Below, in pieces: positions 50,107 to 55,711 of a stretch of DNA of 64,000 nt. A model generated the notes under the pieces. That model was not told where the DNA came from and made no database searches. It was given only the letters and a program-made list of their open reading frames with translations. Source of the DNA: an uncultured Thermoplasmatales archaeon (GTDB taxonomy: Archaea > Thermoplasmatota > E2 > DHVEG-1); assembly GCA_964638155.1 (NCBI GenBank), contig CAZWYI010000006.1:5949-69948 (forward strand). Direction: 5' to 3'. A program made the position numbers and the translations under genes. How positions within the stretch are numbered: position 1 is the stretch's first letter; every line of letters begins with the position of its first letter.

Positions 50107-50984
50107 AATATGCCCTTTTTTTGGGTTGTACTATTCCTGTTCGCGCTCAAAACTATGAGATGAGTGCTAGAGAGGTTGCTAAAAAACTTGGAATTGATTT
50201 TGTTGATATACCTGAGTTTTCCTGCTGCGGGTTCCCTGTGAAGTCAAGTAATGCTGAGTCTTCCTTGGTTATAGCTGCAAGAAATCTTGCAATAGCCGCA
50301 AAAAAAGGTGAAAAAATTTGCACATTATGTAATGCATGCACCTCTGTTCTATCTGAAGCAAATAAGGAACTTACTGAAAATAAAGAACTTAGAAAAATGG
50401 TTAATAAGGAACTAGAAAAAATTGATCTTGAGTTTAAAACTGGTGTTGAAATTAAGCATTTTTCTCGTATATTATATGAAGATATAGGTGCTGACAAAAT
50501 AAAGGATAAAATTTCAAAGAATCTAAGTAAACTTAGCATGAGCATTCATTATGGTTGTCATTATTTACGCCCATCGGAGCTGTACGACGGCTTCGATGAT
50601 TGTGAAAATCCAGAATCTGTTGAAAACCTAGTTTCTGTTACCGGTGCAAAAGTATTTGATTATAAAAATAAGTTGGAATGTTGTGGTGGTGCTATTCTTG
50701 GTGTTGAAGAAGATATTGCGTTATCAATGGCAAAAGATAAACTCGATAATATCACAAAAAATAATGTTGATGCATTGGTTACAATTTGTCCATTTTGTAG
50801 TATTATGTATGAAGATAATCAACGAAAAATTGAATCCAAGTATGATGTTGAATATAATCTACCCGTTCTATATTATCCGCAGGTTTTGGGTCTAGCTATG
50901 GGTATAGAACCAAAACCACTTGGTTTTCGTTTAAATAAGATTAAAGCAAAACAAATCCTTGAGAAAGTGGAGGTGGAAATGTGA
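50103..50984 (+). CDS. hdrB: heterodisulfide reductase subunit B paralogue (CCG domains)
   Basis: FLGCTIP… with SCCGFP and ECCGGA; GTGA overlap with the hdrC2 stop. Confidence 0.8.
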   Translation: MKYALFLGCTIPVRAQNYEMSAREVAKKLGIDFVDIPEFSCCGFPVKSSNAESSLVIAARNLAIAAKKGEKICTLCNACTSVLSEANKELTENKELRKMVNKELEKIDLEFKTGVEIKHFSRILYEDIGADKIKDKISKNLSKLSMSIHYGCHYLRPSELYDGFDDCENPESVENLVSVTGAKVFDYKNKLECCGGAILGVEEDIALSMAKDKLDNITKNNVDALVTICPFCSIMYEDNQRKIESKYDVEYNLPVLYYPQVLGLAMGIEPKPLGFRLNKIKAKQILEKVEVEM

Positions 50985-53900: not shown

Positions 53901-55711
53901 CAAAGGATATACCAGAAACTGTTATGGAGGCTTCAGGAGCAGCGGCAAAAGCAAGTAGTATTATCTCTTCTGAGAGAAATAAACTAGTTGAAAAGAAAAT
54001 ATATCCTCCGGAGCGTGATGTTTCAGGTGAGGATCCTCGTATAGGTCTGTTTATTTGCCACTGTGGAATAAATATAGGTGCGTATGTCGATGTGCCAAAA
54101 GTTGTAGAATATGCAAAAAATCTTCCTAATGTAGTTTATGCTGAAGAAAATCTGTATACATGCTCTGATGATACACAAAGTAAAATTGTTGAAAAGATAA
54201 AAGAGCATAAACTGAACCGCGTTATTGTTGCCTCTTGTACTCCTCGTACTCATGAGCCGTTATTTCAGGAAACAATCCGTGAAGCTGGCCTTAATCCACA
54301 TTTGTTTGAAATGGCAAACATTCGTGATCAATGCAGTTGGGTTCATATGAAAGAACCAAAAAAGGCTACAGAAAAAGCAAAGAAACTTGTGAAAATGGCT
54401 GTAGCAAAAGCCGCTTTAATTGAGCCTTTACAGACAATTGAAATTGATGTAACTCAGAAAGCTTTGGTTATCGGCGGTGGTCTTGCAGGAATGATTTCTG
54501 CACTTGGTATTGCTGATCAAGGATTTGAAGTATTCTTAGTTGAAAAAGAAAATAAGCTAGGTGGAAACCTACGTAATTTATACTGGACTCTTGAAGAACA
54601 TGATGTACAAGAATACATGAAATCTATTATTAAAAAAGTAGAGAAACATCCAAAGATTAAATTATACAAAAACGCAAAAGTTGACAAAGTAGATGGATAT
54701 ATTGGAAACTATGAGACAACAATAAAAAATGGCTCTGCAAAACTATCCTTTAACCATGGTGTAATTGTTGTCGCAACAGGTGCAGAAGAATCAAAATCCT
54801 CTGAATATTTATATGGTAAAGATAAATGTGTAATAACACAATTAGAACTTGAAAAAAAATTAGCTGAAGATAAGAGTTTTTCTAAAAAGACCATTGCTAT
54901 GATTCAATGTGTCGGAAGTCGTGACGATCAACATCCGTATTGTAGTCGCATATGTTGTAGTGATGCAATTAAAAACGCATTGAAAATAAAAGAAAGACAC
55001 CCTGATTCACAAATATATATTCTTTATCGTGACATGAGAACATATGCTTTCAAAGAAAGCTACTATGAAAAAGCTAGGGAAAAAGGAATAATATTTGTCC
55101 GTTACAGAAAGGATAAAAAACCCGTAGTTAAAAAAGGTAAAAAAGAACTTTTAGTTAATGTTGAAGATATTATTCTTGGGGAGCAATTGATGATTCATGC
55201 GGATCAATTAGTTCTTAGCCCTGCTATTGTTCCAAGAGAAGAAAACATAAAACTTGCCCAAAAACTTAAAGTACCGCTTAATGAAGACAACTTCTTTTTA
55301 GAAGCACATGTTAAACTGAGACCAGTTGATTTTGCAACTGAAGGAATATTTCTTGCAGGTATTGCTCACTCTCCAAAATCAATAAAAGAAACAATTTCTC
55401 AATCCTATGCTGCCGCAGCTCGAGCTCTCAACATTGTTTCAAAGGATAAGTATTATACAGATGCACCAATCGCATGTGTAGATGAAGATCTTTGTAGTGG
55501 ATGCGGGGTTTGTGAAAAAATCTGTCCGTATGGTGCAATTGAGATTAATACTGAAGTAAAAGATGGAGAAGAAGTAAGACTTTCAAAAGTAATCGAAGGG
55601 GTATGTAAAGGCTGCGGGAGCTGTGTATCTGCATGCCCATCAGGTGCTATAGAACAAAAAGGTTTCAGACGTGATCAAATTATATCTATGATAGATGCAG
55701 CAGCTGAATAA
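50981..55711 (+). CDS. hdrA: 1576-aa fusion: HdrA-like FAD module with an inserted GltD/NfnB-like NAD(P)H:FAD domain and a 2x4Fe-4S region, followed by a complete HdrA
   Basis: VVGGGIGGIQAALD; the GltD/SudA signature CKDACPAGVGAPGYVALVSQGKFYQALQVIKERLPFPSICGRVCHRPCEEAC; second and third dinucleotide folds IVGGGPSGLTAAHD and VVGGGNAALD. Then the HdrA N-domain PRIGLFICHCGINIGAYVD, ALVIGGGLAGMISAL, and C-terminal CSGCGVCEKICP and CKGCGSCVSACP. Confidence 0.8.
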   Translation: MSSKSSKVGSVLVVGGGIGGIQAALDLANSGFKTYLLDQKPAIGGVMAQLDKTFPTNDCSMCIMSPKLVDVGRHPNIELITYADLVDIKGNAGNFNVKIKKRASYVDPDKCTGCGECEDACPVILDSEFDEGLDDRHAIYKMYPQAVPLNYTIDKHGVQPCKDACPAGVGAPGYVALVSQGKFYQALQVIKERLPFPSICGRVCHRPCEEACTRSDIDDPIGIAYLKRFVGDLELKIPAYQVPPVKGRAESVAIVGGGPSGLTAAHDLALKGYHVTIFEAGPVLGGMMRWGIPAFRLPKEILEREMSDILALGVKVRLNTAIGKDFSIPDLFNLGYDSVLIAVGAQVGKKMNIPGEELDGVYQAIDFLKEINLGHIITTPIATVDEDLCIGCGSCAPECVYGAIRLKKDKNNPKKKYPIIQKYICKGCGKCAKVCPSKAIKLTGVRDITPTVGKKVLVVGGGNAALDTARSAIRLGGEDVTILYRRSRIEMPAEPDWEIDETEREGVNFQYLTSPVEIISDKKGNAKAVKCIKMRLLDEIDKSGRRKIDPVPNSEFTIDADTIILAIGQEVDTGFLSRDVDLEYTPYSSIKVDSLSFTADHKGKLEYTPWSTIKIDRVTHETSIKGVFSSGDAVWGAGTIIEAIAAGKKAAVSIDRYLNGEDLKKGRETKKPVAEISTEGVKKEKMVSMRLLPLEERENNFKEVELGYSEEEAIEEARRCLNCGGCVECLECVRTCEADAINHDMKEKDINLDVGSVILAPGYELFDPKIKSEYGYGRFPNVLNSLEFERILSASGPYQGHVIRPSDKKEPKKVAWIQCVGSRDNACGNNYCSSVCCTYAIKEAVIAKEHSPDIKPTIFYMDMRTYGKGFERYYNRAEDEHGVEFIRCRVSAVEEDPKTKNLLIKYETEDGKLKTEEFDMVVLSCGLSAQENMKEISKKIGVKLNEFGFCETQEFDPIETTKKGIFVCGAFSGPKDIPETVMEASGAAAKASSIISSERNKLVEKKIYPPERDVSGEDPRIGLFICHCGINIGAYVDVPKVVEYAKNLPNVVYAEENLYTCSDDTQSKIVEKIKEHKLNRVIVASCTPRTHEPLFQETIREAGLNPHLFEMANIRDQCSWVHMKEPKKATEKAKKLVKMAVAKAALIEPLQTIEIDVTQKALVIGGGLAGMISALGIADQGFEVFLVEKENKLGGNLRNLYWTLEEHDVQEYMKSIIKKVEKHPKIKLYKNAKVDKVDGYIGNYETTIKNGSAKLSFNHGVIVVATGAEESKSSEYLYGKDKCVITQLELEKKLAEDKSFSKKTIAMIQCVGSRDDQHPYCSRICCSDAIKNALKIKERHPDSQIYILYRDMRTYAFKESYYEKAREKGIIFVRYRKDKKPVVKKGKKELLVNVEDIILGEQLMIHADQLVLSPAIVPREENIKLAQKLKVPLNEDNFFLEAHVKLRPVDFATEGIFLAGIAHSPKSIKETISQSYAAAARALNIVSKDKYYTDAPIACVDEDLCSGCGVCEKICPYGAIEINTEVKDGEEVRLSKVIEGVCKGCGSCVSACPSGAIEQKGFRRDQIISMIDAAAE

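Follow-up and report, generated by a model that had tools for sequence, protein, structure and literature searches.

A tandem HdrA protein with an inserted GltD/NfnB-like module encoded by an uncultured Thermoplasmatales archaeon

The fusion gene and its product

In a 64,000-nucleotide stretch of DNA from an uncultured Thermoplasmatales archaeon (hereafter the window), we analysed the gene hdrA(GltD), whose product combines HdrA-type flavin adenine dinucleotide (FAD) folds with a module related to GltD and NfnB. Coordinates are positions in the window, residue numbers refer to the 1576-residue product, and the alignment used throughout contains 121 sequences, i.e. 120 full-length homologues and the query. 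As stated in a preliminary description of this DNA made from the letters alone, the ORF listing and translation give a single unbroken open reading frame (ORF) of 1576 codons plus stop at 50981..55711 on the forward strand. Its GTG start overlaps the stop codon of the preceding gene, hdrB2, by 4 nt (GTGA), and a Shine-Dalgarno-like GGAGGTG lies upstream of this start. The gene and the parts of its product are as follows.

50981..55711, + strand: hdrA-type gene, tandem HdrA with an inserted GltD/NfnB-like module, 1576 aa (ORF, Pfam/NCBIfam, phmmer against the PDB, 120 full-length homologues)
50981..51292, + strand: unit 1 TrxR-like FAD domain, first part, residues 1-104; GxGxxG at residues 15-20; Cys59/Cys62; no N-terminal domain (5ODC_A alignment)
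51293..51448, + strand: unit 1 inserted ferredoxin, first half, residues 105-156; C111, C114, C117, C121 (5ODC_A alignment, conservation)
51449..53155, + strand: GltD/NfnB-like module of predicted NADPH:FAD type, residues 157-725, circularly permuted (NF009410; PDB matches 9bov_A, 9n5u_A, 8oh5_C and 4ylf_B; Foldseek)
52112..52330, + strand: nested 2x[4Fe-4S] ferredoxin, residues 378-450; C389, C392, C395, C399 and C425, C428, C431, C435 (homologue alignment)
53048..53155, + strand: permuted N-terminal segment of the NfnB fold, residues 690-725 (...EEAIEEARRCLNCGG); C720, C723 (NfnB and Fer4_20 alignment)
53156..53992, + strand: inserted ferredoxin, second half (C726, C729, C732, C736), and rest of the unit 1 TrxR domain, residues 726-1004; E789, K842; C819, C832, C836, C837 (5ODC_A 293-511, conservation)
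54029..54430, + strand: unit 2 N-terminal (MvhD-like) domain; C1026, C1028, C1061, C1086, C1118 (5ODC_A 2-174, conservation)
54431..55462, + strand: unit 2 TrxR-like FAD domain; GxGxxG at residue 1165; E1291, K1331; C1310, C1321, C1325, C1326 (alignment, conservation)
55463..55708, + strand: unit 2 C-terminal 2x[4Fe-4S] ferredoxin (5ODC_A 514-647; cysteines conserved in 120/121)

The preliminary description had itself pointed out that a frameshift or assembly error fusing separate gltD-like and hdrA genes could mimic such a protein. We regard the chance of this as negligible. An independently assembled Logan contig of SRR7048227 encodes the identical 1576-aa protein, and a homology search returned at least 120 clusters (90% identity level) with full-length homologues of 1465-1726 aa and 52-91% identity, which come from many assemblies and from Thermoplasmatota, Promethearchaeota, Aerophobetes and other bacteria. 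The junction is also seen in 603 clusters at the 50% identity level and in no fewer than 552 species genomes. Moreover, the insertion is flanked by two halves of one ferredoxin domain with ligands conserved on both sides, all iron-sulfur (Fe-S) ligand cysteines of the query are conserved across the alignment, and the AlphaFold2 model is confident; nothing was found in favour of an artefact. We conclude that hdrA(GltD) is confirmed as an intact, conserved gene and that the fusion is genuine.

Domain boundaries were set by Pfam/NCBIfam and by phmmer against solved structures, with HdrA of Methanothermococcus thermolithotrophicus (5ODC_A) as reference, a mapping that the preliminary description had proposed. 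Pfam and NCBIfam found HdrA-type FAD folds, and the query aligns to 5ODC_A in four blocks: residues 147-291 of the reference correspond to query residues 12-156, 293-511 to 726-943, 2-174 to 1017-1189, and 514-647 to 1435-1572. Therefore, the protein contains two HdrA cores in tandem and is a single-chain pseudo-heterodimer. Unit 1 (residues 1-156 and 726-1004) begins straight with the FAD fold, keeps the DCSMC motif, lacks both an N-terminal domain and a C-terminal ferredoxin, and holds the sole inserted ferredoxin domain of the chain. Unit 2 (residues 1017-1576) has the sole N-terminal cluster domain, with the sequence PRIGLFICHCG..., and the sole C-terminal ferredoxin, and its TrxR core is without a Cys197 equivalent and without an inserted ferredoxin. 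Thus, the N-domain, the Cys197 equivalent, the inserted ferredoxin and the C-terminal ferredoxin are each present once per chain, split between the two units. The earlier layout of an HdrA-like fold, a GltD-type part and a complete HdrA had to be revised on two points: because the first HdrA fold picks up again beyond the insertion, at 726-1004, the arrangement is a tandem HdrA with an insertion, and the second HdrA is incomplete. The C-terminal ferredoxin in that layout is confirmed, as a dicluster domain, by Pfam/NCBIfam and the 5ODC_A alignment.

Cys59/Cys62, in the DCSMC motif, correspond to Cys194/Cys197 of the 5ODC HdrA and are conserved in 119/121 sequences; in HdrA, Cys197 is the residue that completes the N-terminal domain cluster in trans. 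The GxGxxG motif and the equivalents of the E356/K409 pair (E789/K842 in unit 1, E1291/K1331 in unit 2) are present in both cores and conserved in 119-121 of the 121 sequences, and both cores have the ligands of the TrxR-domain [4Fe-4S] cluster (C386, C399, C403 and C404 in 5ODC). With GxGxxG, the four-cysteine TrxR cluster and the E/K pair, both HdrA cores retain the marks of a bifurcation-competent flavin. The preliminary description's central observation, one chain with an HdrA-type flavin and a GltD/NfnB-type FAD and NAD(P)H site, was borne out, with two HdrA flavin sites of the E356/K409 signature; by count, there are 11 predicted [4Fe-4S] sites, three flavin sites and one NADPH site per chain. 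The product scores 1069.7 bits against a cut-off of 1100 for the NCBIfam equivalog HdrA2 and 809 bits against 1400 for HdrA, i.e. below both, and on these scores it is to be classed as an HdrA homologue rather than an equivalog of the methanogen enzyme. The window also encodes a 1071-aa paralogue (38073-41288) that shares the tandem layout but has no GltD module; it is collinear with the query, the insertion mapping between paralogue residues 208 and 209.

The inserted GltD/NfnB-like module

The module comprises 569 residues (157-725) and lies exactly between the two CxxCxxCxxxC motifs of the unit 1 inserted ferredoxin. The glutamate-synthase-small-subunit/NfnB signature and the two additional dinucleotide folds of the preliminary description are present: NF009410 ('NAD(P)-binding protein') matches with 534 bits, above its curated cut-off of 516; Fer4_20 (GltD-type) matches at residues 159-234, corresponding to profile positions 30-108; and the dinucleotide folds carry GxGxxG at residue 256 (FAD) and GxGxxA at residue 460. 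In the FAD fold, Arg296 stands in an FRLP motif and is conserved across homologues. We considered this NfnB-type arginine as a marker to separate bifurcating from non-bifurcating GltD flavins and dropped it, as StnC keeps the arginine and does not bifurcate (PMC10482914). The second fold has GGGNAA at residues 460-465 and YRRS at residues 484-487, a combination that matches NADPH-binding NfnI, Nfn-ABC and StnC, and other family members have (C/S/A)LE(S/T/K) at the YRRS position, the pattern expected for NADH. Judged by these motifs, the nucleotide site of the query is probably of the NADPH type.

The best sequence matches of the module in phmmer were the Nfn-ABC and StnC modules (E 5e-114 to 2e-97), with NfnB at 2e-92; the top match was 9BOV_A (E 5e-114), followed by 9N5U_A, 8OH5_C (StnC), 4YLF_B (NfnB) and 5JCA_L (NfnI-L). 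We also built an AlphaFold2 model, a check suggested at the outset, for residues 1-1010. The model is confident, with a predicted local distance difference test score (pLDDT) of 83.8 and a predicted template modelling score (pTM) of 0.74, and in Foldseek its best structural matches were Nfn-ABC, StnC and NfnI/NfnB, then HdrA, with modelled similarity to NfnB and NfnI-L corresponding to a TM-score, normalised to the target, of 0.80-0.81.

Relative to NfnB, the module shows a circular permutation: residues ~690-723 (VSMRLLPLEERENNFKEVELGYSEEEAIEEARRCLNCGG) align to residues 6-44 of T. maritima NfnB (E 1e-7) and to Fer4_20 positions 1-37, such that the first ~40 residues of the NfnB fold sit at the C-terminal end of the module. 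This permutation splits the first cluster motif: C161/C165 enter the module and C720/C723 leave it. The cluster ligands of the module are thereby contiguous in sequence with those of HdrA, with C161/C165 directly after the first HdrA motif and C720 and C723, conserved in 121/121, 3 residues before the HdrA motif starting at C726. Because the motif is split and C720/C723 lie 3 residues from C726, we infer that the termini of the module are adjacent and that its clusters would abut those of the inserted ferredoxin. The same permuted order is found in 9BOV_A, 9N5U_A and 8OH5_C, in which the GltD module is also inserted into a host Fe-S domain. The module can thus be viewed as the circularly permuted cassette of StnC and Nfn-ABC, which explains how splicing into a ferredoxin domain is possible; we have not seen this shared cassette pointed out in the literature cited here. 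As a separate observation, the module contains a 23-residue internal repeat (LEYTPYSSIKVD... / LEYTPWSTIKID...) at residues 577-602 (window 52709-52786), which forms a loop with a pLDDT of ~30 in the model and is absent from most homologues.

Although the GltD/NfnB identity held, the module is not the plain GltD module first described, being permuted and holding a nested dicluster ferredoxin. This domain of 73 residues lies between the FAD and NADPH folds, was absent from all solved relatives compared, and appears in the AlphaFold2 model to be flanked by low-pLDDT hinges. It is present in 32/121 aligned sequences, the query included, and missing from 89/121. Among the genome loci, where its presence was scored by counting motifs between the FAD and NADPH motifs since BLAST high-scoring segment pairs bridge the insert with gaps and are unspecific, it was found only in Thermoplasmatota-type loci.

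Other variants occur in the family. A group of homologues of ~1650 aa (P0013, P0016, P0018-P0023, P0025, P0029-P0031 and P0033) has a 166-residue insertion at query position 488, which adds a further NAD(P)-binding Rossmann fold; its motif, CVES, is NADH-like and follows the YRRS one. In a groundwater archaeon (P0012, locus L003; 1726 aa), the tandem HdrA-GltD protein has MvhD (FlpD domain) as a C-terminal fusion.

Distribution, gene neighbourhood and known relatives

To estimate the extent of the family we scanned one genome per species with a nine-sequence junction alignment. The junction is encoded in at least 552 species genomes, a lower bound because the scan reaches only members with an RCL[NQA]CGGC motif, and the junction profile gave the 603 clusters at 50% identity with E <= 1e-10. 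The matches listed include Thermoplasmatota, Hadarchaeota, Asgard archaea, Bathyarchaeia, Bacillota, Thermodesulfobacteriota, Chloroflexota, Actinomycetota, Planctomycetota, Bacteroidota, Spirochaetota and others. The fusion thus occurs in the Asgard, Bathyarchaeia and Chloroflexi genomes in which a survey had been suggested, but the family extends far beyond them, across many anaerobic phyla, and is larger and taxonomically wider than published surveys imply. Among the genomes listed, the closest, an uncultured Thermoplasmatales metagenome-assembled genome (L002), has the same 1576-aa protein in nearly the same gene order; an Asgard origin of the window was considered and set aside because the nearest genomes were of Thermoplasmatales. 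Among 40 related loci whose flanks extend at least 3 kb each way, the fused tandem form (>=1400 aa) is commonest (21/40), and a single-HdrA form of ~1116-1150 aa, which often adjoins an ordinary hdrA or a GltD-less tandem hdrA, accounts for 11/40.

In the window, hdrA(GltD) ends a co-directional run of genes in the order tandem hdrA, hdrC1, hdrB1, mvhG, mvhA, protease, mvhD, glcD-like, CCG Fe-S protein, lplA, hdrC2, hdrB2, hdrA(GltD); fumarase genes lie downstream of it on the opposite strand. The features around it are as follows.

38073..45565, + strand: paralogous tandem HdrA without GltD (38073-41288), hdrC1, hdrB1, mvhG, mvhA and hydrogenase maturation protease (NCBIfam/Pfam)
45586..46008, + strand: mvhD, FlpD domain, [2Fe-2S]-type cysteines (Pfam)
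46005..48568, + strand: GlcD-like FAD-linked 2-hydroxyacid dehydrogenase (46005-47441) and CCG/dicluster Fe-S partner (47453-48568) (Pfam, NCBIfam)
48529..49617, + strand: lipoate-protein ligase (LplA/LplB domains), directly upstream of hdrC2 (Pfam, NCBIfam)
49618..50106, + strand: hdrC2, two CxxCxxCxxxC motifs (Pfam, motif check)
50103..50984, + strand: hdrB2, two complete CCG signatures, 4-nt overlap with hdrA (Pfam CCG, motif check)
57866..58300, + strand: GcvH-type lipoyl carrier protein (Pfam/NCBIfam GcvH, above cut-off)

Linkage of hdrA(GltD) to hdrC and hdrB is direct, the genes being adjacent and overlapping, and hdrC2 and hdrB2 are both intact and seem to be translationally coupled to it. 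For the CCG/dicluster Fe-S partner, NCBIfam ranks TfrB, LdhH and GlcF highest, with none of these matches near its cut-off.

Counting genes up to 6 kb from the fusion in the 40 loci, we found MvhD in 36/40, HdrC in 32/40 and HdrB in 31/40, and the usual arrangement across the family is hdrC-hdrB-hdrA-mvhD. Other partners are rarer: GcvH and GlcD-like proteins each occur in 7/40, the latter recurring as a pair with the CCG partner in 7/40, and LplA and MvhA each occur in 4/40. These counts therefore describe a core of HdrC-HdrB-HdrA(GltD)-MvhD with exchangeable partner modules. One locus (L020) has a Moorella-type metV-metF pair after mvhD; in four bacterial loci (L008, L018, L037 and L048), mvhD is followed, instead of by metVF, by genes for an FrhB/FdhB-like protein and a Fer4_22 protein.

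The HdrA-GltD/NfnB fusion, including its tandem form, has been described before, and the query is a new member of a known family. Its best-known relative, compared here by description only, is HdrA of Moorella thermoacetica from the HdrCBA-MvhD-MetVF methylene-tetrahydrofolate reductase complex (Mock et al. 2014), a 1487-aa protein that is reported to oxidise NADH, in a complex proposed to bifurcate (PMC9430772, PMC5861303). As described there, and as in the query, the chain opens with a TrxR core whose ferredoxin is interrupted by a GltD domain ([4Fe-4S], FAD, NAD(P)H; PMC9430772) and continues with an MvhD-like N-domain and a second TrxR core that has no inserted ferredoxin, ending in a C-terminal ferredoxin; hdrC and hdrB are upstream and MvhD is a partner. 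The second unit is reported to begin at residue 922, as against 1017 in the query; the gap is made up of 96 extra residues (the nested ferredoxin and the 23-residue loop), and the reported length approximates the 1576 aa of the query minus these 96. The Moorella operon is given as hdrC-hdrB-hdrA-mvhD-metV-metF, an order found in full in L020, whereas metVF was not found in the window cluster, in which a GlcD-like dehydrogenase, a CCG protein, lipoate ligase and Mvh hydrogenase take its place. The query also differs in its nested dicluster ferredoxin, its NADPH-type YRRS and its archaeal host, the Moorella enzyme having been assayed with NADH. With a published and partly characterised representative in M. 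thermoacetica, the fusion matters little as a discovery; the additions made here are modest, namely a wide family with a constant HdrC-HdrB-HdrA-MvhD core, the permuted NADPH cassette, and the nested ferredoxin and NADPH-type site of Thermoplasmatota.

Further relatives share parts of this design. HdrL of sulfate reducers is likewise a large HdrA with one or two NAD(P)H-binding domains, followed by mvhD; a role suggested for it is to connect NADH with a thiol/disulfide couple through bifurcation or confurcation, with DsrC as proposed acceptor, and some members have selenocysteine. Junction loci include Desulfobacterales and Syntrophales, and the ~1650-aa homologues with a duplicated NAD(P)-binding fold recall HdrL, although the Desulfobacterales loci sampled differ from the query in having one HdrA, in a protein of ~1145 aa, rather than the tandem. 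HdrA9/10/11 of ANME-1 (a group of anaerobic methanotrophic archaea, ANME) have an NfnB-like insertion of ~500 aa in the inserted ferredoxin domain (PMC9012536), and a 2025 survey that counted nine sequences as 'type III HdrA' proposed NADH as mid-potential partner (PMC12054007). These proteins resemble the query in the site of the insertion, at which NAD(P)H has been suggested to replace ferredoxin; the published GXGXXG-based argument for NADH does not apply to the query, in which the fold is GGGNAA with YRRS. Chadwick et al. read fused ANME HdrA with complementary N-domain and Cys197 as single-chain heterodimers (PMC9012536); in HdrA3/4 of this kind ('type II' fused) the N-domain-bearing unit comes first, whereas it comes second in the query. 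The ANME-type surveys covered methane-metabolising archaea only, whereas the family described here is very widespread.

StnC (8OH5), Nfn-ABC (9BOV, 9N5U) and NfnB/NfnI-L (4YLF, 5JCA) share with the query module two [4Fe-4S] clusters, FAD with a conserved arginine, and an NADPH fold with YRR. The host of the module is a NuoG-like protein in StnC and Nfn-ABC and HdrA in the query; the query has neither NfnA nor a HydBC-type partner, and the nested ferredoxin is on the query side only. The preliminary description had likened the protein to FlxABCD-HdrABC collapsed into one chain. This is incorrect, since HdrB, HdrC and MvhD each have a gene of their own; no gene resembling flxA, flxB, flxC or flxD was found among the annotated genes of the cluster. 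The likeness to the Desulfovibrio system holds only at the substrate level, as an NADH-linked Hdr with an MvhD-like connector. In Flx-Hdr, separate FlxA (FNR-like), FlxB/C and FlxD feed the donor entry, and because the NADPH module of the query is at the other arm, in the inserted ferredoxin rather than at an MvhD/FlxD-type donor entry, the wiring differs.

Proposed electron flow and candidate disulfide substrates

We propose that the product is the 'A' subunit of a soluble HdrABC-type complex with HdrC2, HdrB2 and MvhD that probably carries out NADPH-linked bifurcation or confurcation, a reading based on the motifs and their conservation, the structural model, the gene neighbourhood and analogy with characterised relatives. 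NADPH would exchange hydride with the GltD-type FAD, from which single electrons would cross the two GltD clusters and then both clusters of the inserted ferredoxin before reaching the 'shuttle' cluster of the N-domain and, from there, the HdrA FAD with the E/K bifurcation signature. From this FAD, one branch would lead over the TrxR-domain cluster to HdrC/HdrB, where a disulfide would be reduced or a dithiol oxidised, and the other over the C-terminal ferredoxin and MvhD to ferredoxin (Fd) or the Mvh [NiFe]-hydrogenase. The net, reversible reaction would be 2 NADPH + disulfide + Fd(ox) or 2 H+ = 2 NADP+ + dithiol + Fd(red) or H2. By analogy with StnC and GltD, the GltD flavin would most likely be a plain, non-bifurcating entry or exit for NADPH; the StnC flavin was shown not to bifurcate (PMC10482914). 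The suggestion of a candidate NAD(P)H-linked bifurcating Hdr in the preliminary description is thus plausible, but the same hypothesis has already been published (PMC9430772, PMC5861303, PMC12054007, PMC9012536, PMC2702500).

Several points speak against this proposal. Low-potential electrons of canonical Hdr leave for polyferredoxin through the inserted ferredoxin domain (PMC12350162), and therefore NADPH as a mid-potential donor would need the roles of the two arms to be swapped. The nested ferredoxin could possibly give the GltD flavin a second Fe-S branch and could change the mechanism. In addition, mvhD lies 5 kb upstream of hdrA(GltD), not directly downstream as in most loci, and HdrB and HdrC score far below the NCBIfam equivalog cut-offs for the coenzyme B-coenzyme M (CoB-CoM) enzyme, with HdrA below its own. 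The first of these points leads to a different assignment, in which NADP+ is the acceptor at the low-potential exit and H2 enters via MvhAGD and the C-terminal arm, so that the complex would be an H2:(disulfide + NADP+) oxidoreductase, or work in reverse, without reduced ferredoxin. The module occupies the domain that is the documented exit and, on an argument made for type III HdrA (PMC12054007), would fill the space in which ferredoxin docks, and mvhG, mvhA and mvhD are in the same co-directional cluster. We nevertheless consider this assignment rather unlikely: spending electrons of ~-500 mV on NADP+ (about -320 mV) throws away the energy saved by bifurcation, MvhD occurs without MvhAG nearby in most of the family (the low MvhA count given above), and NADH is the donor of the Moorella enzyme (PMC5861303).

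The second point, the nested ferredoxin, bears on whether two bifurcating flavins might act in series. The NfnB-like FAD would then itself bifurcate or confurcate, with the nested ferredoxin in the role of the NfnA [2Fe-2S] cluster, and combine low-potential electrons from HdrA with those of another, higher-potential donor onto NADP+, or the reverse. Conservation of the NfnB-type Arg296 and the position of a hinged dicluster domain at the FAD/NADPH crossover agree with such a scheme, and two bifurcation sites were raised by Chadwick et al. for ANME-1 HdrA-NfnB fusions (PMC9012536). We judge it very unlikely, because the 89/121 homologues without the nested ferredoxin have one Fe-S path from the GltD flavin, no NfnA-like partner ([2Fe-2S] and a-FAD) was seen among the annotated window ORFs, the small ORFs of which were not all scanned, and of the closest solved modules, Nfn-ABC and StnC, the latter keeps the arginine without bifurcating (PMC10482914). 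We therefore retain a single NADPH-linked entry or exit at the GltD flavin, with bifurcation at HdrA, as the preferred reading.

Because the HdrA, HdrB and HdrC scores lie below their cut-offs, the disulfide is not assigned to CoB-CoM. A lead, rather than a finding, comes from genes for lipoyl proteins. LplA is also directly upstream of hdrC2 in L002, L003, L005 and L012, and a GcvH gene lies beside hdrC or hdrA in L002, L003, L012, L014, L018, L021, L022, L025 and L066, which belong to Thermoplasmatota, Promethearchaeota, Syntrophales and one further bacterium; the loci flagged for lplA and/or gcvH linkage also include L005 and L015. The GcvH of the window and that of L021 (Syntrophaceae, Hdr-linked) share an atypical S(A/G)KWVG at the lipoyl lysine, as against SVKAASD in canonical GcvH. 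A lipoyl-GcvH carrier for Hdr has been speculated on for Culexarchaeia (PMC9723716), and a lipoyl carrier for Hdr is established in the sHdr-LbpA system (PMC6067878). It is possible that the window GcvH is the dithiol/disulfide partner of the Hdr. In a more far-reaching scheme, which we consider distinctly unlikely as a whole, the HdrB dithiol/disulfide in the Thermoplasmatota lineage, and convergently in Promethearchaeota and Syntrophales, would be the lipoyl group of a GcvH-type carrier rather than CoM-S-S-CoB or DsrC; this carrier, charged by the in-cluster lipoate ligase, would shuttle electrons between the GlcD-like dehydrogenase/CCG partner and Hdr, coupling hydroxyacid oxidation through bifurcation or confurcation to NADPH and H2/ferredoxin, with the nested ferredoxin as a second branch and two bifurcation-competent flavins. 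The recurrent lipoate-ligase/GcvH linkage nonetheless provides a testable substrate candidate for Hdr complexes of non-methanogenic archaea.

Some related observations are recorded here. Membership in the sHdr-LbpA type was considered on account of lplA and gcvH and rejected, as the hdrC1B1A-hyp-hdrC2B2 order and a short sHdrA are not present and the 6TJR-type HdrA is a weak match. In L002, the gene next after hdrA(GltD) (12784-14352) encodes a 523-aa protein in which an LplA catalytic domain is joined to a cysteine-rich DUF116 domain; ~3 kb beyond this gene, on the far side of the fumarase genes, is a GcvH-type gene. In the window, it is the fumarase genes that come next after hdrA(GltD). Directly upstream of the hdr/mvh cluster, the + strand of the window (32785-38092) encodes an Fe-S protein and a TfrA-like fumarate-reductase flavoprotein, whose best NCBIfam match is thiol:fumarate reductase TfrA, below cut-off, and then korDABC-like 2-oxoacid:ferredoxin oxidoreductase genes. 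Genes for succinyl-CoA synthetase (29414-31390) and for a class I fumarase (55724-57135) lie in the neighbourhood as well. A thiol-linked fumarate/succinate couple is a possibility as Hdr partner.

Elsewhere in the window, a 2977-aa ORF (20292-29225) is built from FG-GAP repeats (Pfam PF14312, E 6e-288), at least 14 in all, and lies in a region of higher G+C (0.36-0.41) and strong positive GC skew, and a 1241-aa ORF on the minus strand (13528-17253) combines BNR/sialidase-like repeats with a calcineurin-like metallophosphoesterase domain. A radical-SAM protein with an HMPTM N-terminal zinc ribbon, of the methanopterin-biosynthesis methyltransferase type (2158-3699), and HypD (730-1821) hint at a tetrahydromethanopterin (H4MPT)-using, hydrogenase-bearing archaeon.

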